From assembly GCA_964016885.1 (NCBI GenBank), contig OZ024740.1:70060001-70124000 (forward strand): a stretch of DNA of 64,000 bases, read 5' to 3'. Of the stretch, positions 1 through 63,178 are shown one piece after another. The translations under genes were made by a program, and so were the position numbers. The stretch comes from Eledone cirrhosa. Lineage: Eukaryota. The notes below the pieces were generated by a model. It made no database searches. It was given only the letters and a program-made list of their open reading frames with translations, and was not told the DNA's origin. Every line of letters starts with the position of its first letter. Within the stretch, counting starts at the first letter, position 1.

Positions 1-3000
1 CATATTAACAGCTGAGCAGCCAAATTTGCATATCGAGTGAGTTCAGACGGCCGGGCACAGCGAAAACGATAAATGGAAGAGAATGAAACGAAATTTAATT
101 TCTCACTCTTAGTAAGGCACTTACTTAAATGCAAGTATGTATGTATACGTACATACGTATATGTATACAGACGTACAGTAGTATGCATATATATACACAC
201 ATGCACACATGTATATATGCACGTATCGGTTAACCGAACATTTATTATAATGCTCGGTTTGTTTGTTTGTAAACAAACAAACAGCCCGAATTACGCCGTA
301 CAGTGTTTAGGCAACCACGTCACCTTTTTGTTCAACGCGGACACAGGAACGATGTACTAGTTTGAAGCTTATTAGCTATCGTCATCAACGTATACCTTGC
401 AGCCAGATGGTTGAACGTCTGAAAGTATATACTTTCCTTATGCATATTAACAGCTGCGCAGCCTAATTTGCATATCGAATGAGTGCAGATGGCCGGGCAC
501 AACGAAAACGATAAATAGAATGGAATGAAACGAAATTTAATTTCTCACTCTTATGGCGGCACTTTCTTAAATGTAAGTATGTATGTATACGTACATACAT
601 ATATGTATACAGACGTACAGTAGTATGCATATATATACACACATTCACACATATATATATGCACGTATCGATTAACCGAACATTTATTATAATGCTCGAT
701 TTGTTTGTTTGTAAACAAACAAACAGCCCGAATTACGCCGTACAGTGTTTAGGCAACCACGTCACCTTTTTGTTCAACACTGACACAGGATCGAAGTACT
801 AGTTTCAAGCTTATTAGCTATCGTCATCATCGCAAACCTTCCAGCCAGATGGTTGAACGTCTGGAAGTATATACTTTCCTTATGCATATTAACAGCTGAG
901 CAGCCTAATTTGCATATCGGGTGAGTTCAGACGGCCGGGCACACCGAAAACGATAAATGGAATAGAATGAAACGAAATTTAATTTCTCACTCTTAGTACG
1001 GCACTTACTTAAATGTAAGTATGTATGTATACGTACATACATATATGTACAAAGACGTACAGTAGTATATATATATATATACACACATATATATATGCAC
1101 GTATCGGTTTACCGAACATTTATTATAATGCTCGGTTTGTTTGTTTGTAAACAAACAAACAGCCCGAAATACGCCGTACAGTGTTTAGGCAACCACGTCA
1201 CCTTTTTGTTCAACACTGACACAGGAACGATGTACTAGTTTCAAGCATATTAGCTATCGTCATCCTCGTATACCTTCCTGCCAGATGGTTGATCGTCTGA
1301 CAGTATATACTTTCCTTATGCATATTAACAGCTGAGCAGCCTAATTTGCATATCGAGTGAGTTCAGACGGCCGGGCACACCGAAAACGATGAATAGAATA
1401 GAATGAAACGAAATTTAATTTCTCACTCTTAGTACGGCACTTACTTAAATGTAAGTATGTATGTATACGTAGATACATATATGTATACAGACGTACAGTA
1501 GTATATATATATATACACACATGCATACATATATATATATGCACTCATCCTGTTTACGGAATATTGATTATAATGCTCGGTTACTTTGTTTGTAAACAAA
1601 CAAACAGCCCGAATTACCCCGTACAGTGTTTAGGCAACCAGGTCACCTTTTGGTTCAACACTGACACAGGAACGATGTACTAGTTTCAAGCTTATTAGCT
1701 ATCGTCATCGTCGTATACCTTCCTGCCAGATGGTTGAACGTCTGATAGTATATACTTTCCTTATGCATATTAACAGCTGAGCAGCCTAATTTGCATATCG
1801 AGTGAGTTCAGATGGCCGGGCACACCGAAAACGATAAATTTAATAGAATGAAACGAAATTTAATTTCTCACTCTTAGTACGGCCCTTACTTAAATCTAAG
1901 TATGTATGTATACGTACATACATATATGTATACAGACGTACAGTAATATGCATATATATACACACATGCACACATATATATATATGCACGTATCGGTTAA
2001 ACGAACATTTATTATAATGCTCGGTTTGTTTGTTTGTAAACAAACAAACAGCCCGAATTACGCCGTACAGTGTTTAGGCAACCACGTCACCTTTTTGTTC
2101 AACACTGACACAGGAACGATGTACTAGTTTCAAGCTTATTAGCTATCGTCATCATCGTATACCTTCCTGCCAGATGGTTGAACGTCTGAAAGTATATACT
2201 TTCCTTATGCATATTAACAGCTGAGCAGCCTAATTTGCATATCGAGTGAGTTCAGACGGCCGGGCACACCGAAAACGATAAATGGTATAGAATTAAACGA
2301 AATTTAATTTCTCACTCTTAGGGCGGCACTTACTTAAATGTAAGTATGTATGTATACGTACATACATATATGTATACAGACGTACAGTAGTATATATATA
2401 TATATGCCGATGCACACATATATATATGCACATTTCGGTTTACCGAACATTTATTATAATGCTCGGTTTGTTTGTTTGTAAACAAACAAACAGCCCGAAT
2501 TACGCCGTATGTGTTTAGGCAACCACGTCACCTTTTTGTTCAACACTGACACAGCAACGTTGTAGTAGTTTTAAGCTTATTAGCTATCGTCAGCATCGTA
2601 TACCTTCCTGCCAGATGGTTGAACGTCTGAAAGTATATACTTTCCTTATGCATATTAACAGCTGAGCAGCCTAATTTGCATATCGAGTGAGTTCAGACGG
2701 CCGGGCACACCGAAAACGATAAATGGAATAGAATGAAACGGAATTTAATTTCTCACTCTTAGTAAGGCACTTACTTAAATGCAAGTATGTATGTATACGT
2801 ACATACATATATGTATACAGACGTACAGTAGTATATATATACACACATGCACACATATATATATGCACGTATCGGTTTACCGAACATTTATTATAATGCT
2901 CTGTTTGTTTGTTTGTAAACAAACAAACAGCCCGAATTACGCCGTACAGTGTTTAGGCAACCACGTCACCTTTTTGTTCAACACTGTCACAGGAACGATG

Positions 3001-6000
3001 TACTAGTTTCAAGCTTATTAGCTATCGTCATCATCGTTTACCTTCCTGCCAGATGGTTGAACGTCTGAAAGTATATACTTTCCTTATGCATATTAACAGC
3101 TGAGCAACCTAATTTGCATATCGAATGAGTTCAGACGGCCGGGCACACCGAAAACGATAAATAGAATAGAATGAAACGAAATTTAATTTCTCACTCTTAG
3201 TACGGCACTTACTTAAATGCAAGTATGTATGTATACGTACATACATATATGTATACAGACGTACAGTAGTATGCATATATATACACACATATATATATGC
3301 ACGTATCGATTAACCGAACATTTATTATAATGCTCGGTTTGTTTGTTTGTAAACAAACAAACAGCCCGAATTACGCCGTACAGTGTTTAGGCAACCACGT
3401 CACCTTTTTGTTCAACACTGACACAGGAACGAAGTACTAGTTTCAAGCTTATTAGCTATCGTTAGCATCGTATACGTTCCTGCCAGTTGGTTGAACGTCT
3501 GAAAACATATACTTTCCTTATTCATATTAACGGCTGAGCAGCCTAATTTGCATATCGAGTGAGTTTAGACGGCCGGGCACACCGAAAACGATAAATGGAA
3601 TAGTATGAAACGAAATTTAATTTCTCACTCTTAGTACGGCACTTACTTAAATGCAAGTATGTATGTATACGTACATATATATATATATACAGACGTACAG
3701 TAGTATGCATATATATACACACATGCACACATATATATATGCACGTATCGGTTAACCGAACATTTATTATAATGCTCGGTTTGTTTGTTTGTAAACAAAC
3801 AAACAGCCCGAATTACGCCGTACAGTTTTTAGGCAACCACGTCACCTATTTCTTCAACACTGACACAGGAACGATGTACTAGTTTGAAGCTTATTAGCTA
3901 TCGTCATCAACGTATACCTTGCAGCCAGATGGTTGAACGTCTGAAAGTATATACTTTCCTTATGCATATTAACAGCTGAGCAGCCAAATTTGCATATCGA
4001 GTGAGTTCAGACGGCCGGGCACAGCGAAAACGATAAATGGAAGAGAATGAAACGAAATTTAATTTCTCACTCTTAGTAAGGCACTTACTTAAATGCAAGT
4101 ATGTATGTATACGTACATACGTATATGTATACAGACGTACAGTAGTATGCATATATATACACACATGCACACATGTATATATGCACGTATCGGTTAACCG
4201 AACATTTATTATAATGCTCGATTTGTTTGTTTGTAAACAAACAAACAGCCCGAATTACGCCGTACAGTGTTTAGGCAACCACGTCACCTTTTTGTTCAAC
4301 GCGGACACAGGAACGATGTACTAGTTTGAAGCTTATTAGCTATCGTCATCAACGTATACCTTGCAGCCAGATGGTTGAACGTCTGAAAGTATATACTTTC
4401 CTTATGCATATTAACAGCTGCGCAGCCTAATTTGCATATCGAATGAGTGCAGATGGCCGGGCACAACGAAAACGATAAATAGAATGGAATGAAACGAAAT
4501 TTAATTTCTCACTCTTATGGCGGCACTTTCTTAAATGTAAGTATGTATGTATACGTACATACATATATGTATACAGACGTACAGTAGTATGCATATATAT
4601 ACACACATTCACACATATATATATGCACGTATCGATTAACCGAACATTTATTATAATGCTCGATTTGTTTGTTTGTAAACAAACAAACAGCCCGAATTAC
4701 GCCGTACAGTGTTTAGGCAACCACGTCACCTTTTTGTTCAACACTGACACAGGATCGAAGTACTAGTTTCAAGCTTATTAGCTATCGTCATCATCGCAAA
4801 CCTTCCAGCCAGATGGTTGAACGTCTGGAAGTATATACTTTCCTTATGCATATTAACAGCTGAGCAGCCTAATTTGCATATCGGGTGAGTTCAGACGGCC
4901 GGGCACACCGAAAACGATAAATGGAATAGAATGAAACGAAATTTAATTTCTCACTCTTAGTACGGCACTTACTTAAATGTAAGTATGTATGTATACGTAC
5001 ATACATATATGTACAAAGACGTACAGTAGTATATATATATATATACACACATATATATATGCACGTATCGGTTTACCGAACATTTATTATAATGCTCGGT
5101 TTGTTTGTTTGTAAACAAACAAACAGCCCGAAATACGCCGTACAGTGTTTAGGCAACCACGTCACCTTTTTGTTCAACACTGACACAGGAACGATGTACT
5201 AGTTTCAAGCATATTAGCTATCGTCATCCTCGTATACCTTCCTGCCAGATGGTTGATCGTCTGACAGTATATACTTTCCTTATGCATATTAACAGCTGAG
5301 CAGCCTAATTTGCATATCGAGTGAGTTCAGACGGCCGGGCACACCGAAAACGATGAATAGAATAGAATGAAACGAAATTTAATTTCTCACTCTTAGTACG
5401 GCACTTACTTAAATGTAAGTATGTATGTATACGTAGATACATATATGTATACAGACGTACAGTAGTATATATATATATACACACATGCATACATATATAT
5501 ATATGCACTCATCCTGTTTACGGAATATTGATTATAATGCTCGGTTACTTTGTTTGTAAACAAACAAACAGCCCGAATTACCCCGTACAGTGTTTAGGCA
5601 ACCAGGTCACCTTTTGGTTCAACACTGACACAGGAACGATGTACTAGTTTCAAGCTTATTAGCTATCGTCATCGTCGTATACCTTCCTGCCAGATGGTTG
5701 AACGTCTGATAGTATATACTTTCCTTATGCATATTAACAGCTGAGCAGCCTAATTTGCATATCGAGTGAGTTCAGATGGCCGGGCACACCGAAAACGATA
5801 AATTTAATAGAATGAAACGAAATTTAATTTCTCACTCTTAGTACGGCCCTTACTTAAATCTAAGTATGTATGTATACGTACATACATATATGTATACAGA
5901 CGTACAGTAATATGCATATATATACACACATGCACACATATATATATATGCACGTATCGGTTAAACGAACATTTATTATAATGCTCGGTTTGTTTGTTTG

Positions 6001-9000
6001 TAAACAAACAAACAGCCCGAATTACGCCGTACAGTGTTTAGGCAACCACGTCACCTTTTTGTTCAACACTGACACAGGAACGATGTACTAGTTTCAAGCT
6101 TATTAGCTATCGTCATCATCGTATACCTTCCTGCCAGATGGTTGAACGTCTGAAAGTATATACTTTCCTTATGCATATTAACAGCTGAGCAGCCTAATTT
6201 GCATATCGAGTGAGTTCAGACGGCCGGGCACACCGAAAACGATAAATGGTATAGAATTAAACGAAATTTAATTTCTCACTCTTAGGGCGGCACTTACTTA
6301 AATGTAAGTATGTATGTATACGTACATACATATATGTATACAGACGTACAGTAGTATATATATATATATGCCGATGCACACATATATATATGCACATTTC
6401 GGTTTACCGAACATTTATTATAATGCTCGGTTTGTTTGTTTGTAAACAAACAAACAGCCCGAATTACGCCGTATGTGTTTAGGCAACCACGTCACCTTTT
6501 TGTTCAACACTGACACAGCAACGTTGTAGTAGTTTTAAGCTTATTAGCTATCGTCAGCATCGTATACCTTCCTGCCAGATGGTTGAACGTCTGAAAGTAT
6601 ATACTTTCCTTATGCATATTAACAGCTGAGCAGCCTAATTTGCATATCGAGTGAGTTCAGACGGCCGGGCACACCGAAAACGATAAATGGAATAGAATGA
6701 AACGGAATTTAATTTCTCACTCTTAGTAAGGCACTTACTTAAATGCAAGTATGTATGTATACGTACATACATATATGTATACAGACGTACAGTAGTATAT
6801 ATATACACACATGCACACATATATATATGCACGTATCGGTTTACCGAACATTTATTATAATGCTCTGTTTGTTTGTTTGTAAACAAACAAACAGCCCGAA
6901 TTACGCCGTACAGTGTTTAGGCAACCACGTCACCTTTTTGTTCAACACTGTCACAGGAACGATGTACTAGTTTCAAGCTTATTAGCTATCGTCATCATCG
7001 TTTACCTTCCTGCCAGATGGTTGAACGTCTGAAAGTATATACTTTCCTTATGCATATTAACAGCTGAGCAACCTAATTTGCATATCGAATGAGTTCAGAC
7101 GGCCGGGCACACCGAAAACGATAAATAGAATAGAATGAAACGAAATTTAATTTCTCACTCTTAGTACGGCACTTACTTAAATGCAAGTATGTATGTATAC
7201 GTACATACATATATGTATACAGACGTACAGTAGTATGCATATATATACACACATATATATATGCACGTATCGATTAACCGAACATTTATTATAATGCTCG
7301 GTTTGTTTGTTTGTAAACAAACAAACAGCCCGAATTACGCCGTACAGTGTTTAGGCAACCACGTCACCTTTTTGTTCAACACTGACACAGGAACGAAGTA
7401 CTAGTTTCAAGCTTATTAGCTATCGTTAGCATCGTATACGTTCCTGCCAGTTGGTTGAACGTCTGAAAACATATACTTTCCTTATTCATATTAACGGCTG
7501 AGCAGCCTAATTTGCATATCGAGTGAGTTTAGACGGCCGGGCACACCGAAAACGATAAATGGAATAGTATGAAACGAAATTTAATTTCTCACTCTTAGTA
7601 CGGCACTTACTTAAATGCAAGTATGTATGTATACGTACATATATATATATATACAGACGTACAGTAGTATGCATATATATACACACATGCACACATATAT
7701 ATATGCACGTATCGGTTAACCGAACATTTATTATAATGCTCGGTTTGTTTGTTTGTAAACAAACAAACAGCCCGAATTACGCCGTACAGTTTTTAGGCAA
7801 CCACGTCACCTATTTCTTCAACACTGACACAGGAACGATGTACTAGTTTGAAGCTTATTAGCTATCGTCATCAACGTATACCTTGCAGCCAGATGGTTGA
7901 ACGTCTGAAAGTATATACTTTCCTTATGCATATTAACAGCTGAGCAGCCAAATTTGCATATCGAGTGAGTTCAGACGGCCGGGCACAGCGAAAACGATAA
8001 ATGGAAGAGAATGAAACGAAATTTAATTTCTCACTCTTAGTAAGGCACTTACTTAAATGCAAGTATGTATGTATACGTACATACGTATATGTATACAGAC
8101 GTACAGTAGTATGCATATATATACACACATGCACACATGTATATATGCACGTATCGGTTAACCGAACATTTATTATAATGCTCGATTTGTTTGTTTGTAA
8201 ACAAACAAACAGCCCGAATTACGCCGTACAGTGTTTAGGCAACCACGTCACCTTTTTGTTCAACGCGGACACAGGAACGATGTACTAGTTTGAAGCTTAT
8301 TAGCTATCGTCATCAACGTATACCTTGCAGCCAGATGGTTGAACGTCTGAAAGTATATACTTTCCTTATGCATATTAACAGCTGCGCAGCCTAATTTGCA
8401 TATCGAATGAGTGCAGATGGCCGGGCACAACGAAAACGATAAATAGAATGGAATGAAACGAAATTTAATTTCTCACTCTTATGGCGGCACTTTCTTAAAT
8501 GTAAGTATGTATGTATACGTACATACATATATGTATACAGACGTACAGTAGTATGCATATATATACACACATTCACACATATATATATGCACGTATCGAT
8601 TAACCGAACATTTATTATAATGCTCGATTTGTTTGTTTGTAAACAAACAAACAGCCCGAATTACGCCGTACAGTGTTTAGGCAACCACGTCACCTTTTTG
8701 TTCAACACTGACACAGGATCGAAGTACTAGTTTCAAGCTTATTAGCTATCGTCATCATCGCAAACCTTCCAGCCAGATGGTTGAACGTCTGGAAGTATAT
8801 ACTTTCCTTATGCATATTAACAGCTGAGCAGCCTAATTTGCATATCGGGTGAGTTCAGACGGCCGGGCACACCGAAAACGATAAATGGAATAGAATGAAA
8901 CGAAATTTAATTTCTCACTCTTAGTACGGCACTTACTTAAATGTAAGTATGTATGTATACGTACATACATATATGTACAAAGACGTACAGTAGTATATAT

Positions 9001-12000
9001 ATATATATACACACATATATATATGCACGTATCGGTTTACCGAACATTTATTATAATGCTCGGTTTGTTTGTTTGTAAACAAACAAACAGCCCGAAATAC
9101 GCCGTACAGTGTTTAGGCAACCACGTCACCTTTTTGTTCAACACTGACACAGGAACGATGTACTAGTTTCAAGCATATTAGCTATCGTCATCCTCGTATA
9201 CCTTCCTGCCAGATGGTTGATCGTCTGACAGTATATACTTTCCTTATGCATATTAACAGCTGAGCAGCCTAATTTGCATATCGAGTGAGTTCAGACGGCC
9301 GGGCACACCGAAAACGATGAATAGAATAGAATGAAACGAAATTTAATTTCTCACTCTTAGTACGGCACTTACTTAAATGTAAGTATGTATGTATACGTAG
9401 ATACATATATGTATACAGACGTACAGTAGTATATATATATATACACACATGCATACATATATATATATGCACTCATCCTGTTTACGGAATATTGATTATA
9501 ATGCTCGGTTACTTTGTTTGTAAACAAACAAACAGCCCGAATTACCCCGTACAGTGTTTAGGCAACCAGGTCACCTTTTGGTTCAACACTGACACAGGAA
9601 CGATGTACTAGTTTCAAGCTTATTAGCTATCGTCATCGTCGTATACCTTCCTGCCAGATGGTTGAACGTCTGATAGTATATACTTTCCTTATGCATATTA
9701 ACAGCTGAGCAGCCTAATTTGCATATCGAGTGAGTTCAGATGGCCGGGCACACCGAAAACGATAAATTTAATAGAATGAAACGAAATTTAATTTCTCACT
9801 CTTAGTACGGCCCTTACTTAAATCTAAGTATGTATGTATACGTACATACATATATGTATACAGACGTACAGTCGTATATATATATACACACATGCACACA
9901 TATATATATATGCACGTATCCCGTTTACGGAACATTTATTATAATGCTCGGTTTGTTTGTTTGTAAACAAACAAACAGCCCGAATTACGCCGTACAGTGT
10001 TTAGGCAACCACGTCACCTTTTTGTTCAACACTGTCACAGGAACGATGTAGTAGTTTCAAGCTTATTAGCTATCGTCATCATCGTATACCTTCCTGCCAG
10101 ATGGTTGAACGTCTGAAAGTATATACTTTCCTTATGCATATTAACAGCTGAGCAGCCTAATTTGCATATCGAGTGAGTTCAGACGGCCGGGCACACCGAA
10201 AACGATAAATGGAAGGGAATGAAACGAAATTTCATTTCTCACTCTTAGTACGGCATTTACTTAAATGCAAGTATGTATGTATACGTACATACATATATGT
10301 ATACAGACGTACAGTAATATGCATATATATACACACATGCACACATATATATATATGCACGTATCGGTTAAACGAACATTTATTATAATGCTCGGTTTGT
10401 TTGTTTGTAAACAAACAAACAGCCCGAATTACGCCGTACAGTGTTTAGGCAACCACGTCACCTTTTTGTTCAACACTGACACAGGAACGATGTACTAGTT
10501 TCAAGCTTATTAGCTATCGTCATCATCGTATACCTTCCTGCCAGATGGTTGAACGTCTGAAAGTATATAATTTCCTTATGCATATTAACAGCTGAGCAGC
10601 CAAATTTGCATATCGAGTGAGTTCAGACGGCCGGGCACAGCGAAAACGATAAATGGAAGAGAATGAAACGAAATTTAATTTCTCACTCTTAGTAAGGCAC
10701 TTACTTAAATGCAAGTATGTATGTATACGTACATACGTATATGTATACAGACGTACAGTAGTATGCATATATATACACACATGCACACATGTATATATGC
10801 ACGTATCGGTTAACCGAACATTTATTATAATGCTCGGTTTGTTTGTTTGTAAACAAACAAACAGCCCGAATTACGCCGTACAGTGTTTAGGCAACCACGT
10901 CACCTTTTTGTTCAACGCGGACACAGGAACGATGTACTAGTTTGAAGCTTATTAGCTATCGTCATCAACGTATACCTTGCAGCCAGATGGTTGAACGTCT
11001 GAAAGTATATACTTTCCTTATGCATATTAACAGCTGCGCAGCCTAATTTGCATATCGAATGAGTGCAGATGGCCGGGCACAACGAAAACGATAAATAGAA
11101 TGGAATGAAACGAAATTTAATTTCTCACTCTTATGGCGGCACTTTCTTAAATGTAAGTATGTATGTATACGTACATACATATATGTATACAGACGTACAG
11201 TAGTATGCATATATATACACACATTCACACATATATATATGCACGTATCGATTAACCGAACATTTATTATAATGCTCGATTTGTTTGTTTGTAAACAAAC
11301 AAACAGCCCGAATTACGCCGTACAGTGTTTAGGCAACCACGTCACCTTTTTGTTCAACACTGACACAGGATCGAAGTACTAGTTTCAAGCTTATTAGCTA
11401 TCGTCATCATCGCAAACCTTCCAGCCAGATGGTTGAACGTCTGGAAGTATATACTTTCCTTATGCATATTAACAGCTGAGCAGCCTAATTTGCATATCGG
11501 GTGAGTTCAGACGGCCGGGCACACCGAAAACGATAAATGGAATAGAATGAAACGAAATTTAATTTCTCACTCTTAGTACGGCACTTACTTAAATGTAAGT
11601 ATGTATGTATACGTACATACATATATGTACAAAGACGTACAGTAGTATATATATATATATACACACATATATATATGCACGTATCGGTTTACCGAACATT
11701 TATTATAATGCTCGGTTTGTTTGTTTGTAAACAAACAAACAGCCCGAAATACGCCGTACAGTGTTTAGGCAACCACGTCACCTTTTTGTTCAACACTGAC
11801 ACAGGAACGATGTACTAGTTTCAAGCATATTAGCTATCGTCATCCTCGTATACCTTCCTGCCAGATGGTTGATCGTCTGACAGTATATACTTTCCTTATG
11901 CATATTAACAGCTGAGCAGCCTAATTTGCATATCGAGTGAGTTCAGACGGCCGGGCACACCGAAAACGATGAATAGAATAGAATGAAACGAAATTTAATT

Positions 12001-15000
12001 TCTCACTCTTAGTACGGCACTTACTTAAATGTAAGTATGTATGTATACGTAGATACATATATGTATACAGACGTACAGTAGTATATATATATATACACAC
12101 ATGCATACATATATATATATGCACTCATCCTGTTTACGGAATATTGATTATAATGCTCGGTTACTTTGTTTGTAAACAAACAAACAGCCCGAATTACCCC
12201 GTACAGTGTTTAGGCAACCAGGTCACCTTTTGGTTCAACACTGACACAGGAACGATGTACTAGTTTCAAGCTTATTAGCTATCGTCATCGTCGTATACCT
12301 TCCTGCCAGATGGTTGAACGTCTGATAGTATATACTTTCCTTATGCATATTAACAGCTGAGCAGCCTAATTTGCATATCGAGTGAGTTCAGATGGCCGGG
12401 CACACCGAAAACGATAAATTTAATAGAATGAAACGAAATTTAATTTCTCACTCTTAGTACGGCCCTTACTTAAATCTAAGTATGTATGTATACGTACATA
12501 CATATATGTATACAGACGTACAGTAATATGCATATATATACACACATGCACACATATATATATATGCACGTATCGGTTAAACGAACATTTATTATAATGC
12601 TCGGTTTGTTTGTTTGTAAACAAACAAACAGCCCGAATTACGCCGTACAGTGTTTAGGCAACCACGTCACCTTTTTGTTCAACACTGACACAGGAACGAT
12701 GTACTAGTTTCAAGCTTATTAGCTATCGTCATCATCGTATACCTTCCTGCCAGATGGTTGAACGTCTGAAAGTATATACTTTCCTTATGCATATTAACAG
12801 CTGAGCAGCCTAATTTGCATATCGAGTGAGTTCAGACGGCCGGGCACACCGAAAACGATAAATGGTATAGAATTAAACGAAATTTAATTTCTCACTCTTA
12901 GGGCGGCACTTACTTAAATGTAAGTATGTATGTATACGTACATACATATATGTATACAGACGTACAGTAGTATATATATATATATGCCGATGCACACATA
13001 TATATATGCACATTTCGGTTTACCGAACATTTATTATAATGCTCGGTTTGTTTGTTTGTAAACAAACAAACAGCCCGAATTACGCCGTATGTGTTTAGGC
13101 AACCACGTCACCTTTTTGTTCAACACTGACACAGCAACGTTGTAGTAGTTTTAAGCTTATTAGCTATCGTCAGCATCGTATACCTTCCTGCCAGATGGTT
13201 GAACGTCTGAAAGTATATACTTTCCTTATGCATATTAACAGCTGAGCAGCCTAATTTGCATATCGAGTGAGTTCAGACGGCCGGGCACACCGAAAACGAT
13301 AAATGGAATAGAATGAAACGGAATTTAATTTCTCACTCTTAGTAAGGCACTTACTTAAATGCAAGTATGTATGTATACGTACATACATATATGTATACAG
13401 ACGTACAGTAGTATATATATACACACATGCACACATATATATATGCACGTATCGGTTTACCGAACATTTATTATAATGCTCTGTTTGTTTGTTTGTAAAC
13501 AAACAAACAGCCCGAATTACGCCGTACAGTGTTTAGGCAACCACGTCACCTTTTTGTTCAACACTGTCACAGGAACGATGTACTAGTTTCAAGCTTATTA
13601 GCTATCGTCATCATCGTTTACCTTCCTGCCAGATGGTTGAACGTCTGAAAGTATATACTTTCCTTATGCATATTAACAGCTGAGCAACCTAATTTGCATA
13701 TCGAATGAGTTCAGACGGCCGGGCACACCGAAAACGATAAATAGAATAGAATGAAACGAAATTTAATTTCTCACTCTTAGTACGGCACTTACTTAAATGC
13801 AAGTATGTATGTATACGTACATACATATATGTATACAGACGTACAGTAGTATGCATATATATACACACATATATATATGCACGTATCGATTAACCGAACA
13901 TTTATTATAATGCTCGGTTTGTTTGTTTGTAAACAAACAAACAGCCCGAATTACGCCGTACAGTGTTTAGGCAACCACGTCACCTTTTTGTTCAACACTG
14001 ACACAGGAACGAAGTACTAGTTTCAAGCTTATTAGCTATCGTTAGCATCGTATACGTTCCTGCCAGTTGGTTGAACGTCTGAAAACATATACTTTCCTTA
14101 TTCATATTAACGGCTGAGCAGCCTAATTTGCATATCGAGTGAGTTTAGACGGCCGGGCACACCGAAAACGATAAATGGAATAGTATGAAACGAAATTTAA
14201 TTTCTCACTCTTAGTACGGCACTTACTTAAATGCAAGTATGTATGTATACGTACATATATATATATATACAGACGTACAGTAGTATGCATATATATACAC
14301 ACATGCACACATATATATATGCACGTATCGGTTAACCGAACATTTATTATAATGCTCGGTTTGTTTGTTTGTAAACAAACAAACAGCCCGAATTACGCCG
14401 TACAGTTTTTAGGCAACCACGTCACCTATTTCTTCAACACTGACACAGGAACGATGTACTAGTTTGAAGCTTATTAGCTATCGTCATCATCGTATACCTT
14501 CCTGCCAGATGGTTGAACGTCTGAAAGTATATACTTTCCTTGTGCATATTAACAGCTGAGCAGCCTAATTTGCATATCGAGGAATTCAGACGGCCGGGCA
14601 CACCAAAAACGATAAATAGAATAGAATTAAACGAAATTTAATTTCTCACTCTTAGTAAGGCACTTACTTAAATGTAAGTATGTATGTATACGTAGATACA
14701 TATATGTATACAGACGTACAGTAGTATATGTATATATACACACACTTATATATATGCACGTATCGGTTTACCGAACATTTATTAGAATGCTCGGTTTGTT
14801 TGTTTGTAAACAAACAGACAGCCCGAATTACGCCGTATGTGTTTAGGCAACCACGTCACCTTTTTGTTCAACACTGACACAGGAACGATGTACTAATATC
14901 AAGCTTATTAGCTATCGTCATCATCGTACACCCTCCTGCCAGATGGTTGAACGTCTGAAAGTATATACTTTCATTATGCATATTAACAGCTGATCTGCCT

Positions 15001-16199
15001 AATTTGCATATCGCGTGAGTTCAGACGGCCGGGCACACCAAAAACGATAAATGGAATAGAATGAAACGAAATTTAATTTCTCACTCTTAGTACGGCTTTT
15101 ACTTAAATGCAAGTATGTATGTATACGTACATACATATATGTCTACAGCCGTACAGTAGTATATATATATATATATACACACATATATATGTACATGTAT
15201 CGTTTTACCGAATATTTATTATAATGCTCGGTTTGTTTGTTTGTAAACAATCAAACAGCCCGAATTACGCCGTACAGGGTTTAGGCAACCACGTCACCTT
15301 TTTGTTCAACACTGACACAGAAACGATATACTAGTTTCAAGCTTATTAGCTATCGTCATCATCGTATACCTTCCTGCCTGATGGTTGAACGTCTGAAAAC
15401 ATATACTTTCCTTATGCATATTAACAGCTGAGCAGCCTAATTTGCATAGCGAGTGAGTTCAGACGGCCGGGCACACCGAAAACGATAAATAGAATAGAAT
15501 TAAACGAAATTTAATTTCTCACTCTTAATACGGCACTTACTTAAATGTAAGTATGTATGTATACGTACATACATATATGTATACAGACGTACAGTAGTAT
15601 ATATATATATATACACCCATGCACACATATAAATATGCACATTTCGGTTTACCGAACATTTATTATAATGCTCGGTTTGTTTGTTTGTAAACAAACAAAC
15701 AGCCCGAATTACGCCGTACAGTGTTTAGGCAACCACGTCACCTTTTTGTTCAACACTGACGCAGGAACGATGTACTAGTTTCAAGCTTATTAGCTATCGT
15801 TATCATCGTACACCTTCCTGCCAGATGGTTGAACGTCTGAAAGTATATACTTTCCTTATGCATATTAACAGCTGAGCAGCCTAATTTGCATCTCGAGTGA
15901 GTTCAGACGGCCGGGCACACCGAAAACAATAAATGGAATAGAATGAAACGAAATTTAATTTCTCACTCTTAGTAAGGCACTTACTTAAATGTAAGTATGT
16001 ATGTATACGTACATACATATATGTATACAGCCGTACAGTAGTATATATATATACACACATATATATATGCACGCATCGGTTTACCGAACATTTATTATAA
16101 TGCTTGGTTTGTTTGTTTGTAAACAAACAAACAGCCCGAATTACGCCGTACAGTGTTTAGGCAACCACGTCAACTTTTTGTTCAACACTGACTTAGAAA

Positions 16200-16240
16200 C
16201 GATGTACTAGTTTCAAGCTTATTAGCTATCGTCAGCATCG
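16200..16240 (-). ncRNA. Minimal type I hammerhead ribozyme with intact core, in a satellite monomer
   Basis: Minus strand reads CGATG-CTGACGA-TAGCT AATA AGCTT-GAAA-CTAG-TA-CATCG. This gives stem I CGATG/CATCG, a CUGANGA core, stem II AGCT/AGCT, GAAA, a palindromic ACTAGT helix III and a GUA cleavage triplet. Confidence 0.88.
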
Positions 16241-16641
16241 TATACCTTCCTGCCAGATGGTTGAACGTCTGAAAGTATATAATTTCCTTATGCATATTAA
16301 CGGCTGAGCAGCCTAATTTGCATATCGAGTGAGTTCAGACGGCCGGGCACACCGAAAACGATAAATGGAATAGAATGAAACGAAATTTAATTTCTCACTC
16401 TTAGGGCGGCACTTATTTAAATGCAAGTATGTATGTATACGTACATACATATATGTATACAGACGTACAGGAGTATATATATATATACACACATGCACAC
16501 ATATATATATGCACGTATCGCTTTACCGAACATTTATTATAATGCTCGGTTTGTTTGTTTGTAAACAAACAAACAGCCCGAATTACGCCGTACAATGTTT
16601 AGGCAACCACGTCACCTTTTTGTTCGACAATGACACAGGAA

Positions 16642-16682
16642 CGATGTACTAGTTTCAAGCTTATTAACTATCCTCAGCATCG
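16642..16682 (-). ncRNA. Minimal type I hammerhead ribozyme with intact core, in the last satellite monomer
   Basis: Minus strand reads CGATG-CTGAGGA-TAGTT AATA AGCTT-GAAA-CTAG-TA-CATCG. The changes relative to 16200 are at the variable N7 position and a G-U pair in stem II, both tolerated. Stem I can extend via CAGGAA/TTCCTG. Confidence 0.85.
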
Positions 16683-16743
16683 TATACCTTCCTGCCAAAT
16701 TATTGAACGTATGAAACTATATACTTTCCTTATGCATATTAAC

Positions 16744-17146
16744 GATATCGTTTTCGGTGTGCCCGGCCGACTGAACTCACTCGATATGCAAATTAGACTG
16801 CTCAGCTGTTAATATGCATAAGGAAATTATATACTTTCAGACGTTCAACCATCTGGCAGGAAGGTATACGATGATGACGATAGCTAATAAGCTTGTAACT
16901 AGTACATCGTTCCTGTGTCAGTGTTGAACAAAAAGTGACGTGGTTGCCTAAACACTGTACGGCATAATTCGGGCTGTTTGTTTGTTTACAAACAAACAAA
17001 CCGAGCATTATAATAAATGTTCGTTTAACCGATACGTGCATATATATATATATGTGTGCATGTGTGTATATATATGCATACTACTGTACGTCTGTATACA
17101 TATATGAATGTACGTATACATACATACATACATACATACTTGCATT

Positions 17147-17147
<1 letters not shown>
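16744..17147 (+). repeat. Inverted partial satellite monomer terminating the array
   Basis: Reverse complement of the monomer (ATCGTTTTCGGTGTGCCCGGCCG...). Its HHR copy near 16869-16909 is mutated (ATGACGA, GTAA). It ends in (TA)n. Confidence 0.93.
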
Positions 17148-33020: not shown

Positions 33021-33070
33021 GACGTAAAATAAGAACATTTTAAAAATTAACTTACTTACTAAAATTTTCA

Positions 33071-34172: not shown

Positions 34173-34334
34173 TGAAAATTTTAGTAAGTTAATTTTTAAA
34201 ATTTTCTTATTTTACGTCTTTCATATAATTGTTCTGCATCCCCTTGCATAGAACCACAAAGGTACTAAGACATAACATATATATTTGCTAGCATGGGTAT
34301 ACATCTGTATACATATGTTGGTAGATATACTAAT

Positions 34335-43000: not shown

Positions 43001-43375
43001 ACGCCGGAAGAAATCAGGCCGCCCTGCTCCTGTCGGGGCATAGACAGCCACTAGCCTGAAAGCTTGCCCGTCTCCGCTGGTCACGTCCAGCACCACCAGC
43101 TTACCCTCTGGGTCCAGGAAGATGGCCCGTATGGCGAGATCCAAACCTCTCCGAAAAAGCACAGCAACTCCTCCCCCCGATCCAGGACGGCTGGGAGATG
43201 CGTACACATCGTAGCCGCCGAAGATCGGTGCGAAGGCCCGTGCTTCGGAGATTCTGGTCTCGCTGATGGCCACTATATCTATGTTTAGTGACCTGAGGTC
43301 GTTGAGCAGGTGACCTTGCTTCCATGACGACCCCAAGCCACGCGCATTTATGCTGCCTATTCTGAGTGAGGTCAT
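40011..43375 (-). pseudogene. ORF2: APE endonuclease, reverse transcriptase and zf-RVT, broken by frameshifts near 42500 and 42125
   Basis: SINARGL, ISETR, VAVYAP, LVGDWN, SYLDRVF and YTDHK (APE, 42500-43375). RQGCPLS, AYADD and CPRC...HALVQC (40011-42416). Confidence 0.95.
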
Positions 43376-43683
43376 GTTTAAAATAGAGTGGAAAAGATGG
43401 GAAAGACCACTTACCGTACTTTTCGTAGAGGAGGGATGCTTTTTACATCCCTTTTCACTTGATCGTCTGGTGAAGGGACCGTTGAATCGTCCCTTCGGCT
43501 AGTCGTCGGCTCTTTTATGAGTATGTCCGAATATACTCTTCGATTGATAGTTCCTCCTAGGTCCCTGAAATCACCAACTGCGTTGGGGAATTTCGTTTTA
43601 ATGTTTGTGTGTCGTTTTTGTGCTATTTTTAGCAGTCTTATGTTAGTTGACGTTTTGATTGGTGCTGGTATTATGTAGTCGTG

Positions 43684-48494: not shown

Positions 48495-48507
48495 TTAATA
48501 TAGATGA

Positions 48508-48556
48508 GATTCTACAGGACTAGAACTGTTTCATTCTTTAGAAATCATCAGGAATC
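48508..48556 (-). ncRNA. Type I hammerhead ribozyme in a short non-coding element (48490-48627)
   Basis: Minus strand reads GATTC-CTGATGA-TTTC TAAA GAAT-GAAA-CAG TTCTAGTC CTG-TA-GAATC. Five-bp stem I, a true helix III, GUA site. Confidence 0.85.
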
Positions 48557-48626
48557 AACTTTTATACTCTGCTATGTATTGAGTACCTTACTTACTGTGG
48601 TTACCTCCGATTCAACCCGGAATAAC

Positions 48627-49732: not shown

Positions 49733-49898
49733 ATGAGATTCTACAGGACTAAAACTGTTTCATTCTGATTTCTTATGATTTCTAAAGAATGAAACTGTTC
49801 TAGTCCTGTAGAATCTCATCTATATTAAAACTTTTATACTCTGCTATGTATTGAGTACCTTACTTACTGTGGTTACCTCCGATTCAACCCGGAATAAC
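49733..49898 (+). repeat. Second copy of the 48490 family, with a short inverted head and a mutated HHR (CTTATGA) at 49767-49815
   Basis: Shares the HHR and the tail CTTTTATACTCTGCTATGTATTGAG...CCCGGAATAAC with 48490-48627. Confidence 0.8.
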
Positions 49899-49901
49899 TT
49901 A

Positions 49902-49998
<97 letters not shown>

Positions 49999-50155
49999 TG
50001 GAATAAATGCTCTGAAATAGCGATATATATGTGAATATAGACATAGAATATTCGAAAATATTCTGTATGTTTATAATAAACATTTTGAAGACCTAATCGC
50101 TATAGAATAGAATACGTCACGTATTACAATTAGATTCTCGATAAAAGCAAGGGAA

Positions 50156-50198
50156 GTAATCTACGCGTTTCATTCTCGTTAGAAATCATCAGGACTAC
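50156..50198 (-). ncRNA. Type I hammerhead ribozyme (second minus copy at 50466-50508)
   Basis: Reverse complement of the 50910 motif. Confidence 0.9.
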
Positions 50199-50909
50199 AT
50201 ATCCAGTGCTTTTATCGAGAATGACACAGCTAGAGACTTATAGAATACTTAGCTGTGTACAGGAACTGGTTTGAAAGAGCGGTTGCCGGTCCGGCAGAAA
50301 TTAGAAATTGGAATAAATGCTCTGAAATAGCGATATATATGTGAATATAGACATAGAATATTCGAAAATATTCTGTATGTTTATAATAAACATTTTGAAG
50401 ACCTAATCGCTATAGAATAGAATACGTCACGTATTACAATTAGATTCTCGATAAAAGCAAGGGAAGTAATCTACGCGTTTCATTCTCGTTAGAAATCATC
50501 AGGACTACATATCCAGTGCTTTTATCGAGAATGACACAGCTAGAGACTTATAGAATACTTAGCTGTGTACAGGAACTGGTTTGAAAGAGCGGTTGCCGGT
50601 CCGGCAGAAATTAGAAATTGGAATAAATGCTCTGAAATAGCGATATATATGTGAATATAGACATAGAATATTCGAAAATATTCTGTATGTTTATAATAAG
50701 CATTTTGAAGACCTAATCGCTTTATAAACATACAGAATATTTTCGAATATTCTATGTCTATATTCACATATATATCGCTATTTCAGAGCATTTATTCCAA
50801 TTTCTAATTTCTGCCGGACCGGCAACCGCTCTTTCAAACCAGTTCCTGTACACAGCTAAGTATTCTATAAGTCTCTAGCTGTGTCATTCTCGATAAAAGC
50901 ACTGGATAT

Positions 50910-50952
50910 GTAGTCCTGATGATTTCTAACGAGAATGAAACGCGTAGATTAC
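50910..50952 (+). ncRNA. Type I hammerhead ribozyme (further copies at 51220, 51530 and 51840)
   Basis: GTAGTC-CTGATGA-TTTCT AACG AGAAT-GAAA-CGCG-TA-GATTAC with palindromic ACGCGT. Stem I is extended by a perfect 16-bp ATTCTCGATAAAAGCA/TGCTTTTATCGAGAAT. Confidence 0.93.
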
Positions 50953-52002
50953 TTCCCTTGCTTTTATCGAGAATCTAATTGTAATACGTGACGTATTCTA
51001 TTCTATAGCGATTAGGTCTTCAAAATGTTTATTATAAACATACAGAATATTTTCGAATATTCTATGTCTATATTCACATATATATCGCTATTTCAGAGCA
51101 TTTATTCCAATTTCTAATTTCTGCCGGACCGGCAACCGCTCTTTCAAACCAGTTCCTGTACACAGCTAAGTATTCTATAAGTCTCTAGCTGTGTCATTCT
51201 CGATAAAAGCACTGGATATGTAGTCCTGATGATTTCTAACGAGAATGAAACGCGTAGATTACTTCCCTTGCTTTTATCGAGAATCTAATTGTAATACGTG
51301 ACGTATTCTATTCTATAGCGATTAGGTCTTCAAAATGTTTATTATAAACATACAGAATATTTTCGAATATTCTATGTCTATATTCACATATATATCGCTA
51401 TTTCAGAGCATTTATTCCAATTTCTAATTTCTGCCGGACCGGCAACCGCTCTTTCAAACCAGTTCCTGTACACAGCTAAGTATTCTATAAGTCTCTAGCT
51501 GTGTCATTCTCGATAAAAGCACTGGATATGTAGTCCTGATGATTTCTAACGAGAATGAAACGCGTAGATTACTTCCCTTGCTTTTATCGAGAATCTAATT
51601 GTAATACGTGACGTATTCTATTCTATAGCGATTAGGTCTTCAAAATGTTTATTATAAACATACAGAATATTTTCGAATATTCTATGTCTATATTCACATA
51701 TATATCGCTATTTCAGAGCATTTATTCCAATTTCTAATTTCTGCCGGACCGGCAACCGCTCTTTCAAACCAGTTCCTGTACACAGCTAAGTATTCTATAA
51801 GTCTCTAGCTGTGTCATTCTCGATAAAAGCACTGGATATGTAGTCCTGATGATTTCTAACGAGAATGAAACGCGTAGATTACTTCCCTTGCTTTTATCGA
51901 GAATCTAATTGTAATACGTGACGTATTCTATTCTATAGCGATTAGGTCTTCAAAATGTTTATTATAAACATACAGAATATTTTCGAATATTCTATGTCTA
52001 TA

Positions 52003-52043
<41 letters not shown>

Positions 52044-52112
52044 TATGAAGAGAGAAGAAACATTTAGATATAATTAGTAATAAAATGTATCATACCTAAA
52101 CTGCTCCTAGAT

Positions 52113-52202
52113 TCCTAGACTACGTAGTTTCGTGGCATAAACAAAAACAATACATCATAAAGATATAGAGTCCTTGCGAGGTCTGCCGACTTATCAAGAG
52201 GA
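52113..52202 (-). ncRNA. Hammerhead ribozyme, U3-A8 variant (minus arm)
   Basis: Reverse complement of the 52718 motif, with one stem I mismatch next to the cleavage site. Confidence 0.68.
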
Positions 52203-52717
52203 TACCTCATTTTACTAGCCTCAAGAACGCGTCTACACGACGTGAGAAAGAATCCCAAAAGGCGGAGGGGGTATTTATATCGAAGCCGCAGAAGAGGTGG
52301 TGAAGGAGGCGAGAAGTATGAGTAATGGCAGCTTTCCAGCACTCACCACACTTCAAAGATTACTCGACCAGAGGGAGTTATTAACAATATATTTAGAAAC
52401 ACACAGATACATGCGGACACACACATATACATGAATGCATCCACACCCAACCGCGAGTTAAGGGTGCCAACCTCACCGATGTTGCTCAATGGTGACTGCT
52501 GGAAAGCTGCCATTACTCATACTTCTCGCCTGCTTCACCACCTCTTCTGCGGCTTCGATATAAATACCCCCTCCGCCTCCGTGGTATTTTCTTCGGGGTT
52601 ATAAGAGGCTTAGCTCTGTTTCTCGACCGTTAAGTCGCGTGACTATCTCCCCCTCCGCCTTTTGGGATTCTTTCTCGCGTCGTGTAGACGCGTTCTTGAG
52701 GCTAGTAAAATGAGGTA

Positions 52718-52807
52718 TCCTCTTGATAAGTCGGCAGACCTCGCAGGGACTCTATATCTTTATGATGTATTGTTTTTGTTTATGCCACGAAACTACGTAG
52801 TCGAGGA
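52718..52807 (+). ncRNA. Type I hammerhead ribozyme, U3-A8 compensatory variant
   Basis: TCCTC-TTGATAA-GT(C)GGCA...TGCCAC-GAAA-CTACGTAG-TC-GAGGA. Palindromic ACTACGTAGT, GUC site. Confidence 0.82.
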
Positions 52808-53046
52808 ATCTAGGAGCAGTTTAGGTATGATACATTTTATTACTAATTATATCTAAATGTTTCTTCTCTCTTCATAATGTATTTTTAACTCTGATACTGG
52901 TTCAGTCTAGTTCAACCGGATTGGTCTGTCCCAGTCATTCATTGAGCAACATCGGTGAGGTTGGCACCCTTAACTCGCGGTTGGGTGTGGATGCATTCAT
53001 GTATATGTGTGTCCCCGCATGTATCTGTGTGTTTCTAAATATATTG

Positions 53047-57631: not shown

Positions 57632-57917
57632 GCACACATTTATTCTTTGTCCCATTGGCCTGCGAAATCTTGCAATATATATATAAATATATAAATGTAT
57701 ATATATATATATAGTATTAGTTATACTATTTATGGTTATGTAAACACAAAACCTTAAGCAGTTGTAAGTATTTTACACACACCCTAAATAGTGGTAGGCA
57801 GTAATGTATTACTACCTTATTACCAGTAAGTTAAGTAGCTCAATGTAAAAACATCAGATGATTTACAGAGCAGATATATGAAATATAAGAATCAAAGAAC
57901 TGTTCAAAACATTATTG

Positions 57918-57964
57918 TGCTTACAGCTGTTTCCTCCAAACCGAGGTTTGGATTCTTCGGAGCA
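57918..57964 (-). ncRNA. Hammerhead ribozyme variant (inverted copy of 60214-60260)
   Basis: Reverse complement of the 60214 motif. Confidence 0.75.
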
Positions 57965-58307
57965 ATTTATTAATGCATGGACAGTTATATGACCTCCTTT
58001 TCAGCCGAGAGACATACCAATACATATTCAAACATTGATACATATTCAAACATTGTGGGTCAACATTCATTACAGAATTTAGAGTGGCAGTACACACTTC
58101 GAGATTACATTTATATTAATAGGTACAATCAAAAATCAAAGATATAGGTTAAAGTACAACATGAAGATAAGTGGTTATATAGTGCAAATGTTATATGTGT
58201 GGCACGCATATGCGTCTTGTTTATATAGTGTGGCAGAGATATATGTGTGGTAGAGGCACTTAGGTAGGTAAATAAGAGTGTTAGGTTGGTAGATCTGGTG
58301 GCAAAGT

Positions 58308-58769
58308 CATTATAACCAGCGGACTAACGCACAGAATAATTGTAACTGTAGAGCTAATAGAACCTGCCCTTTAGATAAAAAATGCCTAACCAAGGATGTC
58401 ATATACTCATGCACAGTCACGACTAATAACTCTTCAGAAACCTATGTAGGCTCCACTTCTAACTGCTTCAAAATCAGATATAACTCGCACATCCACTCGT
58501 TCAAAAAGCACAGCCTAGCCAACTCCACCTCACTTTCTAGCTACATACACTATCTAAAATCTAAAAATAAACCATACACACTCAAATGGGAAGTGATAGG
58601 CAGCGCGACCTCGTACAAACCACCTAATAAATTCTGTAACCTCTGTATACTAGAGACACACAATATTATCTTCTCCAACCGTAACCTACTTAACAAAAAA
58701 TCTGAGGTGTTTGCAACTTGCCAGCACCGCCTCAGACATTCCTTCCAAAACTTTAAGCCCTATATATAG
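58308..58769 (+). pseudogene. GIY-YIG endonuclease C-terminus of Penelope element 2 (no start codon, absent from the ORF track)
   Basis: Open frame NCNCRANRTCPLDKKCLTKDVIYSCTV...TYVGSTSNCFKIRYNSHIHSF...LKWEVI...CNLCILE...CQHR, ending at TAG 58767-58769. Confidence 0.9.
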
Positions 58770-60213
58770 CAATGTCGGACTGGAACCTAACACCGCATCT
58801 AGCATCAAACACCAGAGACACACCCTATACTACATACCCAACACTAGCTGATCCATTATAACACAAACAACGACATCCCTCTGGAACCCTTCGCAGGGAA
58901 AATACCCATTTATACCTCTACGGCAGGTGTGACAACATCCACCCACTTGGACGGCACTACACCGCTCTAAGGGTAATTTTGAGCATGAATTGATCGGTTG
59001 GATGGTGTTGGGCAGAGGAAACACCTTCCTTAGACAGATGTAAAATGATTTAATCGAGTAGCGCTGTTGACCAGTAGGACCGGGCTGCTGAGCGCAGTGA
59101 GTGAATGCAATGCAACTGCCGTGCGGGTTGTACGTATATGGATGATCTGACGGTCAGAGAGGGGTCGCGAGGACTGCGGATTGACCTTTGGCCTGCCTGG
59201 GGACGATTATCTTTCGACATCCAATGTAGCAAGCGATGACCCAGATCTTACCAGAGATCATTGGGTCCCGAAGCAGTCCTGCAATCACCGCGCCTGGTCA
59301 TATGAGCAGACTACAACCACAGAGATCATTAATTTAGAATCCTCGCTCATCATCTATAATTTCCATTTGTAGCACCTTAAGATGGGTTAATCCACCCTAA
59401 TAATAATATGATCACCTTCAGCATAATTTAGTTAAACTACTCTATAGTTAGTACACTTTATGCTTTAAAAGTCTCTCTTGGAAGGTGCACCTCACCATAG
59501 AATTTAGGGTCTATATTGGGACACATTTTAATGACTAGATATAGAAACCCCAGAGTTACCTCCCCGCATGCATTAACTCCCCTTAGCCACACACACACTT
59601 CCGGTATTCAATGGCGTTTCTCGAAACGTAACAACCTCCTGTATCGAACTAAAGAACACCAGGCTACGATCTCTAACTGGATTGTCGTGGATTATGTGAA
59701 AGGCATATAATCGAAATATACACTCCCTTGACCATGAAAATGCCGAAGTACATGAATAACTTGACATCCCTGCGCTGTGCATCTCCAATACTTATAACAC
59801 TTTTAATGCTTGCACTATCTTTAATGCTTATAATATTTCTCCACACACAGACTATATCAATCATATAAAGACTTTGCCACCAGATCTACCAACCTAACAC
59901 TCTTATTTACCTACCTAAGTGCCTCTACCACACATATCTCTCTGCCACACTATATAAACAAGACGCACATGCGTGCCACACATATAACATTTGCACTATA
60001 TAACCACTTATCTTCATGTTGTACTTTAACCTATATCTTTGATTTTTGATTGTACCTATTAATATAAATGTAATCTCGAAGTGTGTACTGCCACTCTAAA
60101 TTCTGTAATGAATGTTGACCCACAATGTTTGAATATGTATCAATGTTTGAATATGTATTGGTATGTCTCTCGGCTGAAAAGGAGGTCATATAACTGTCCA
60201 TGCATTAATAAAT

Positions 60214-60260
60214 TGCTCCGAAGAATCCAAACCTCGGTTTGGAGGAAACAGCTGTAAGCA
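60214..60260 (+). ncRNA. Hammerhead ribozyme variant in the pseudo-LTR of Penelope element 2
   Basis: TGCT-CCGAAGA-ATCCAAACC TC GGTTTGGAG-GAAA-CAGCTG-TA-AGCA. U4C core variant, long stem II, palindromic ACAGCTGT. Confidence 0.78.
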
Positions 60261-60361
60261 CAATAATGTTTTGAACAGTTCTTTGATTCTTATATTTCAT
60301 ATATATATATATATATATATACATTTATATACTGGACTCCTTTGAAGAGGACCTGCTGAAA

Positions 60362-62807: not shown

Positions 62808-63060
62808 AATAGCACACTGGATCTCCCTGCAACAAGTCTTAACACCCCGGCGGGCAGGCGCAGCAAAATAACACCCAGAAAACAATCCTTGCATACCAAA
62901 AATTATCCGGGAAAGACTGCCCTAACACCGGCCAAAGTTACCTCCCTTGACCTGCTGCAAAATCAAAACAAGATATTTTTGCGAGCAATGAATCTTGATG
63001 TGGATTTAACCCCCAAAACTCTTTCCGAACTATATAAGGAACTCTTGTGATTGTTTATGC

Positions 63061-63095
63061 CCTTGAGAAGCCCAACTGGGCGAAACGTACGTAGG
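63061..63095 (+). ncRNA. Minimal hammerhead ribozyme, U3-A8 variant, in the pseudo-LTR of Penelope element 3
   Basis: CC-TTGAGAA-GCCC AACT GGGC-GAAA-CGTACG-TA-GG with palindromic ACGTACGT. Stem I is short. Confidence 0.75.
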
Positions 63096-63178
63096 TGATA
63101 TTTTAAATAAACATGTTTTAACGGTCTATTCTCCGATTTTTCACTTTCCCACGTACATTTATATATTTATTTATAAAT

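Follow-up and report, generated by a model that had tools for sequence, protein, structure and literature searches.

Insertions of a family of 310-bp hammerhead repeats follow a strict end rule. Two inverted arms are present in 59 of the 71 insertions that we dissected, and all 59 pair one outer end at a site S with one outer end at a site T. This inversion is a rule of the family rather than an accident, and it carries the mechanism. We think it likely that the arms end at these two fixed sites, ~30 nt apart, through the action of the reverse transcriptase-endonuclease of a Penelope-like element (PLE), which would nick both strands of a (TA)n target and prime both on one RNA, probably a 310-nt circle.

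Anatomy of the insertions and their outer ends

The window (the whole 64-kb stretch of DNA that was analysed) contains two period-310 arms on opposite strands, which abut (TA)n directly and show no LTR layout. To the right of a (TA)n target tract (49904..49991) lies the left arm, on the minus strand (49992..50721; 730 nt, 2.35 units). Its ribozyme-sense 3' end points outward at site T (position 170 of the unit, numbered from the predicted cut GUA|GAUUAC), and its inner 5' end is position 61. The right arm, on the plus strand (50722..52006; 1,285 nt, 4.15 units), runs from an inner 5' end at position 86 to an outer 3' end at site S (position 130), followed by the right (TA)n tract (52007..52040). 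Unit positions 131-170 of the left end (49992..50031, minus strand) are confined to this outer end and form a “tail” of 31-40 nt, a range that reflects the ambiguous assignment of the TA-like positions 131-139. The inversion centre (50697..50722) has a blunt join at 50721|50722 and a 25-nt unmirrored spacer containing the single substitution of the 2,015-bp insertion, at 50700. This confirms the near-identical 310-bp units and the arms diverging in (TA)n that a first-pass annotation of the window had described.

The best explanation of this array, and as a whole a probable one, is a single insertion of a non-coding retrozyme family. Retrozyme units are expected to measure 150-450 bp with a GC content under 45-50%; this one measures 310 bp with a GC content of 0.339 (50001-52000). 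No frame of at least 150 aa overlaps the array, and there is no ORF within the unit. Together with a hammerhead in each unit and a dispersed distribution, these are, at the level of sequence, the features of a non-LTR retrozyme.

The first-pass annotation had proposed a young, amplifying non-LTR retrozyme, and had named uniqueness of the unit in the genome as evidence to the contrary. The unit is not unique: its 43-nt core has 4,033 exact genomic copies, and a 16-nt part of the ribozyme (its 3' half, common to more variants) has 17,233, with 0 control matches for both. These copies, the dissected insertions and the low divergence support the proposal. Non-fixed variants amount to 5.5e-4 per base, hence the family is very young. 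We counted 756 T-type and 659 S-type end patterns on the forward strand, the reverse-strand counts being inflated through overlapping lengths. With ~9 units per insertion on average, these ends lead to an estimate of ~1,500-1,900 insertions in the host assembly (3.0 Gb, rich in microsatellites and PLEs). The sequence was also found in six public runs from four studies, none of them on record as RNA; runs X1, X2, X3 and X6 contain the unit almost whole and are filed under four different organism labels from four studies. In the contigs of run X3, arrays end at S and at T and continue into TA. One 340-nt cyclic contig identical to the unit came from each of X1 and X2, but we rejected these contigs as evidence for a circle since tandem DNA repeats assemble identically.

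The 71 dissected insertions were obtained from 39 fetched end pairs, all 30 unpaired ends and the first arrays. They lie within the initial 115 Mb of a single contig, and the patterns used to choose most of the loci require (TA)n. One of the 40 end pairs (14.9 kb) was left out of fetching. The counts exclude alignments below 95% identity, two short internal fragments of L041 and variants at most 14 nt from an S end. L049 has a second array, which was counted once (as L050), and the duplicated insertion in L056 was counted twice.

Site S lies ~130-139 nt past the cleavage site and site T ~165-172 nt past it. S ends are at 130 or 139, where the unit reads CACATATATAT, in 49 of 66 cases, and 60 of 62 T ends fall within 165-172 (mostly at 165, 167, 170 and 172). 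On contig C1, we took the first 55 listed ends of type T and the first 55 of type S. They form 40 divergent pairs, and all 40 are mixed, in a test that left S+S and T+T pairs free to appear. When arrays were selected by the ribozyme pattern only, ten of the first 11 (including that of the window) were two-armed, with ribozyme-sense 3' ends outward, and all ten were S+T; the 21 outer 3' ends of these 11 arrays all enter TA-rich tracts, i.e., they show a microsatellite bias. Of three further arrays, again chosen solely for their ribozyme, one is a T+S pair and the other two have a single arm each, with ends at 160 and 164. Among insertions found from one end only, the two-armed cases were S+T in 17 out of 17.

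Single arms were found in 12 insertions, ten ending at S and two at T, one of the 12 being interrupted by an assembly gap. Their loci include L062, L064, L066, L067, L069, L075, L076, L080, L210 and L033, and are mostly of the S type. Locus L064 has an abortive T arm of ~12 nt, which together with the excess of S among single arms suggests that S priming may act alone. Retrozymes are expected to have target-site duplications longer than 4 bp where they have any; informative duplications occur in 7 of 56 two-arm insertions (five of 12-14 nt) against 0.5 in shuffled pairs, a control that ignores motifs recurring within one microsatellite, while duplications of pure TA are not callable.

Inner junctions, template and ribozyme

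The inner ends are spread across the unit (chi-square p 0.18) and the distance between inner phases is uniform (KS p 0.86). The longer arm is the S arm in 27 insertions and the T arm in 32 (of 59). Gapless joins have microhomology of at least 2 nt in 26 of 44 cases, against 18% expected, and most of the gapped joins inspected contain short templated inserts. One array carries a 272-nt GC-rich foreign insert exactly at its inversion junction (L051:1999-2270), with no match among the other fetched loci. Inversion by twin priming of the LINE-1 (L1) type, which should place the inner end of one arm next to the priming site of the other, is disfavoured, given that inner phases are dispersed over the unit and poly(A) is absent.

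Both arms carry the same haplotype in 38 of 39 informative arrays; random pairs of insertions agree with a probability of 0.17. There are 24 haplotypes in the 71 insertions, many of them private and shared by all units of the array. For a new variant to become fixed throughout both arms, a bottleneck of a single unit is needed, which a circle copied repeatedly would supply in one step. Template jumping between linear monomers is disfavoured because errors do not accumulate at the cut and ligation point, where we found 4 in 631 crossings (~3.4 expected). Sporadic variants present in one unit of each arm were found in L050, L193, L194 and L201; in L193 and L201 the variant sits solely in the outermost unit of both arms. 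Such arm-shared variants make up 4 of the 94 non-fixed ones, to which adds L070, a mosaic in which 4 outer units differ. A single monomer circle is insufficient for L070 and for the four arm-shared variants unless there was template switching or later conversion between arms, and this minority of events fits a multimeric template or such conversion. The first-pass annotation had favoured rolling-circle copying of a 310-nt monomer circle. The shared haplotypes and fixed private variants speak for it, but five arrays point to multimeric or mixed templates. We consider the monomer circle to be the likely template in the usual case.

Identical type-I hammerheads (GUAGUC-CUGAUGA-helix II-GAAA-CGCG-UA|GAUUAC) are present in all six unit copies that span the site. 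In each, helix I measures 6 bp and has a 16-bp extension, and the loop of helix III, of four bases, lies within an ACGCGU palindrome. Two are on the minus strand, at 50134..50222 (core start 50192, predicted cut between 50162 and 50161) and 50444..50532 (core start 50502, predicted cut between 50472 and 50471). Four are on the plus strand, at 50886..50974 (core start 50916, predicted cut 50946|50947), 51196..51284 (51226), 51506..51594 (51536) and 51816..51904 (51846). The 16-bp extension, the palindrome and four hairpins named by the first-pass annotation are all present, and its count of six intact hammerheads is borne out as six complete copies. This holds for the sequence, since the core is absent from the predicted monomer fold, helix II has a U-U mismatch at its base, and Rfam gave no match at gathering score within the window. 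The base of helix II is normally paired in hammerheads.

The monomer folds better than 100 of 100 shuffles, both as a linear molecule (z -3.45) and as a circle (-67.8 against -48.2 +/- 4.9 kcal/mol). Its predicted fold lacks a formed hammerhead core, and to open the core would take an exchange of helix III between two copies by way of the palindrome; the duplex between copies is predicted at -9.5 kcal/mol. In this predicted helix III between two copies, the unit resembles amphibian retrozymes that need dimers, as described in the accessible text on the latter.

The hammerhead fold is under selection. Array-wide substitutions in its stems kept or improved pairing in six cases out of six and never struck the core: four are A-to-G changes leading to G-U, one is a G-to-A change leading to A-U, and one closes the U-U mismatch. 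The pairing-preserving variants use G-U wobbles on the ribozyme strand. Loop II and core position 7, which is variable, account for the remaining array-wide variants of the hammerhead. Sporadic variants, which may include assembly errors, broke pairs or the core in 15 of 15 cases and kept pairing in none (Fisher p 1.8e-5 for 0/15 versus 6/6). Selection on the fold implies that a cleavage step is required somewhere in the cycle, and self-cleavage of the unit is predicted from the folding and from this selection.

We aligned 10 units of three sister families. Helix I, its extension and helix II are retained despite two-sided changes (11 of 16, 5 of 6 and 3 of 5 pairs), in a comparison where related sequences can exceed the shuffle control. 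The hairpin preceding site S is kept in the sister families (97% of cells paired), two other hairpins are not shared in register, and the stretch from S to T is the best-conserved part of the unit. With its preceding hairpin (positions 98-117), this stretch is likely a module for the start of reverse transcription; one internal copy with both sites lies at 51044..51122 on the plus strand.

Penelope-like elements, the proposed cycle and its alternatives

PLE insertions have an inverted 5'-truncated copy with a 30-40-bp tail at one end and a preference for microsatellites (Craig 2021, PMC8557442; Arkhipova 2013, PMC3846280; accessible text). A purified Anolis PLE protein, a predicted dimer, nicks and extends both target strands in vitro, with reverse transcription from two internal sites between which lies the stretch that forms the genomic tail (Frangieh 2024, PMC11167929, accessible text). 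The start site was alike on both strands in the accessible part of Frangieh et al. (PMC11167929), which neither shows nor excludes pairing per molecule. From the two internal starts and the extension of both strands, we infer that the S and T ends are two starts of reverse transcription, one per target strand.

A two-armed PLE insertion with the same S+T end rule lies in the window at 57711..60299, with no sequence match to the 310-bp unit. Among the matches listed, at least 149 other copies are 100% identical to the window copy in the endonuclease. Intact 819-aa ORFs are found elsewhere, many matches lie in 832-codon open frames, the period is ~4.2 kb, and the hammerhead is a CCGAAGA variant. 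This family is very young and active. We fetched 19 of its inverted insertions: the 14 with both ends resolved are all S+T, none with two S ends, and the other five have one S end and one end running beyond S. Its tail measures ~163 nt, against ~30 nt in the 310-bp family, and it shares no sequence with the 310-bp unit; it therefore exhibits the rule, not a partnership. The Penelope reverse transcriptase that the first-pass annotation had suggested as mobiliser gains support beyond the argument given there, as the two-site tail rule is common to the unit and to the active PLE of the window. We are fairly confident that PLE-type twin priming made the arms.

The PLE proteins of the window, which we take to be Penelope-like by their motifs, have no match in Pfam or PDB and fall with PLE-like Atlas clusters at 0.97-0.99. 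The genome contains tens of thousands of PLE-like candidates. Among them, neither four PLE families (three in the window and one fused to a sister-family array) nor a profile search of ~1.35 Mb of fetched loci revealed an autonomous PLE sharing the sequence of the unit, or pLTR homology to it. A variant of the tail pattern, used as a lead to PLEs, gave 79 matches, of which the 30 viewed were all retrozyme relatives. The unit itself has no ORF for the reverse transcriptase and GIY-YIG domains of an autonomous PLE. Two further PLE insertions lie in the window at 22962-26443, with long inverted arms, and at 60330-63170, from a family with many copies 98-99% identical in the reverse transcriptase.

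In the cycle that we propose, a tandem array would be transcribed and its hammerheads would cut at GUA|GAUUAC, probably as double hammerheads via the ACGCGU palindrome; the monomer may then be ligated into a circle, as in other retrozymes. One target end would prime at S, where the RNA reads CAUAUAUAU and could pair with (TA)n, and the other at T, with a match of only 2-3 nt. Each enzyme would circle the template for an independent number of turns, consistent with the independence of arm lengths and the shared haplotype. The two cDNA 3' ends would be joined head to head through 1-4-nt microhomology or short templated inserts, as in the observed junctions, and then filled in. Some arms may later expand into satellites by DNA-level duplication. 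The accessible literature includes the hypothesis that PLEs mobilise retrozymes from circles. The full version given here, in which a Penelope-type reverse transcriptase dimer primes both strands at staggered sites of one circular RNA and both enzymes roll around it, has in our view slightly better than even chances.

The same twin priming at S and T might instead have as its template a read-through transcript from a homogeneous source array, linear, multimeric and uncut. In vitro, PLE insertion was not lowered by hammerhead mutations and mainly used unprocessed RNA (PMC11167929, accessible text). Many predicted retrozymes do not cleave, as is the case of eight out of nine from Xenopus in the accessible text. 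The L193 and L201 variants, confined to the outermost units, are expected if both primers start in one multimer unit, and the L070 mosaic fits too. Yet linear copying only shortens arrays and would transmit mosaics, whereas the 24 haplotypes are fixed array-wide and often private, and L070 aside the arm-shared variants are few. The ribozyme fold is also under selection, which requires cleavage somewhere. On balance, we find a multimeric template rather unlikely.

The second arm could also stem from self-priming or fold-back on an antisense template, the published explanation of inverted pLTRs, which Arkhipova 2013 put forward for Penelope repeats in a head-to-head arrangement (PMC3846280, accessible text). 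Such an origin accounts directly for the shared haplotype, and indeed 9 of 59 junctions are at most 17 nt from perfect symmetry and the L193 variant is mirrored about the centre. It is nevertheless improbable, because inner-phase distances are uniform, without clustering near zero, the longer arm is not tied to the type of end, most sporadic variants are unmirrored, and both outer ends are at fixed sites matching starts of reverse transcription in vitro (PMC11167929, accessible text). Finally, the family might be a DNA-level satellite, amplified and homogenised by recombination, whose palindromes would be replication errors or assembly artefacts. The longest arms do have local duplications of variants (L048, L050, L051), and the contigs of one run yield the cyclic unit only, as they would for any tandem repeat. 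But the short dispersed arrays, whose 3' ends in the RNA sense are fixed, whose 5' ends are random and whose flanks are not mirrored, the G-U pairs retained on the ribozyme strand, and the recurrence of S and T ends followed by TA in run X3 largely refute this explanation, to which we give very little credence.

Related satellites and known systems

After twin-primed insertion, one arm may grow into a satellite by DNA-level events, an idea supported by analogy. A hammerhead satellite of another family, with 442-bp units, occupies 1..17147 of the window. Its minus arm of 48 units begins ~4.3 kb left of the window (contig C1 70055700-70060000, L296) and flips at 16743 into a plus arm of 0.9 units that ends in (TA)n. 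Two of the 48 cores are intact, and the far end runs ~12 nt beyond the end of the short arm. Dispersed relatives of this satellite are found in many fetched loci. The first-pass annotation had seen in the 310-bp array a model for the starting stage of this big satellite. The two-arm anatomy is the same, but the satellite belongs to a different family, with a weak profile match to the unit (E 4.6e-4), so that the support is by analogy. The analogy draws on this anatomy, on a sister-family array of at least 40 units, and on the duplications in the longest young arms.

The sister families have units of ~317-320 bp (L093:640-975, L111-L140, L144, L182) that are colinear with the 310-bp unit, with 1,877 exact matches of one tail motif. 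Their hammerhead is diverged, with a longer helix III, but they share the S-to-T stretch of the unit; several occur as inverted copies whose T end lies in (TA)n. Their array of at least 40 units is an older satellite on contig C2 (208895600-208908300; L264, L265, L266). At its 5' end it is fused, across 4 nt of microhomology, to the 3' UTR of a PLE that is 5'-truncated and belongs to a different family. The fusion could reflect a template jump from one RNA to the other, or an insertion accompanied by a deletion.

Other elements are found near the array. Another hammerhead family, whose helix III measures 4 bp and whose helix II is nearly identical to that of the 310-bp unit, has small palindromic insertions at 48500-48620 and 49735-49903. 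The second of these has its (TA)n tract in common with the array, and relatives are found in L063, L064 and a flank of L038. Additional elements with inverted arms and motifs resembling hammerheads are at 33049-34194, 35491, 52033-52887 and 17981. There are two non-LTR retrotransposons, one at 20417-22986, flanked by inverted repeats (19852-20146 and 26428-26722), and one at 40011-45564, with RVT_1 and zf-RVT.

The class of element is known. The family shares with metazoan non-LTR retrozymes ~300-bp tandem units, low GC, the lack of ORFs, one type-I hammerhead per unit, a helix III so short that dimers would be needed, copy numbers in the thousands, and PLEs as proposed mobilisers (Cervera and de la Pena 2020; Li, Clavereau and Pollet 2026; PMC7229834; bioRxiv 10.64898/2026.07.22.740005; accessible text). 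Two-armed insertions with fixed S and T ends are not described in the accessible text of these papers: “orientation” is absent from both main texts, “inverted” from PMC7229834, and “inversion” and “palindrom” from bioRxiv 10.64898/2026.07.22.740005. In their accessible text, the evidence for PLEs is co-occurrence and pLTR homology, whereas here it is the insertion signature, pLTR homology not being found in the families examined. They showed expression and cleavage, which for the 310-bp family are predictions.

The accessible text on endonuclease-containing PLEs (PMC11167929, PMC8557442, PMC3846280) describes further shared traits, namely tandem and inverted 5'-truncated copies, a 30-40-bp tail at one end, two internal starts of reverse transcription, nicking and extension of both strands, and a (TA)n bias. 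Unlike PLEs, the 310-bp element encodes no protein and both its arms are multi-unit. The PLE papers treat the tail as optional and ascribe the inversion to self-priming or resolution; strict one-S-one-T pairing and a shared template are not reported in their accessible text.

In L1 twin priming, reportedly described by Ostertag and Kazazian in 2001, both target ends prime on one RNA, the 3' ends point outward, and the cDNA ends join by microhomology. In L1 the first primer uses the poly(A) end, and each arm copies a different portion of a linear RNA, with no overlap between the two. In the 310-bp family, by contrast, both starts are internal and fixed, and both arms cover one unit many times. 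We found no description of strict S+T pairing, of a shared template or of two-armed retrozyme arrays in the main texts of the open-access literature searched.

The family provides near-identical natural insertion products, with a strict and countable end rule common to an active PLE in the same genome, and a 310-nt substrate with two mapped start sites that suits the existing in vitro PLE assay. It bears on which enzyme mobilises animal retrozymes and from which template, as well as on the origin of PLE inverted repeats with a one-sided tail, and it links fresh insertions to longer, decayed hammerhead satellites of like anatomy. If twin-primed rolling-circle retrotransposition is true, each insertion would preserve a single RNA molecule as a clonal palindrome. 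The one-S-one-T rule would then account, in PLEs generally, for inverted repeats arranged head to head and for a tail at one end, and such insertions would seed hammerhead satellites.
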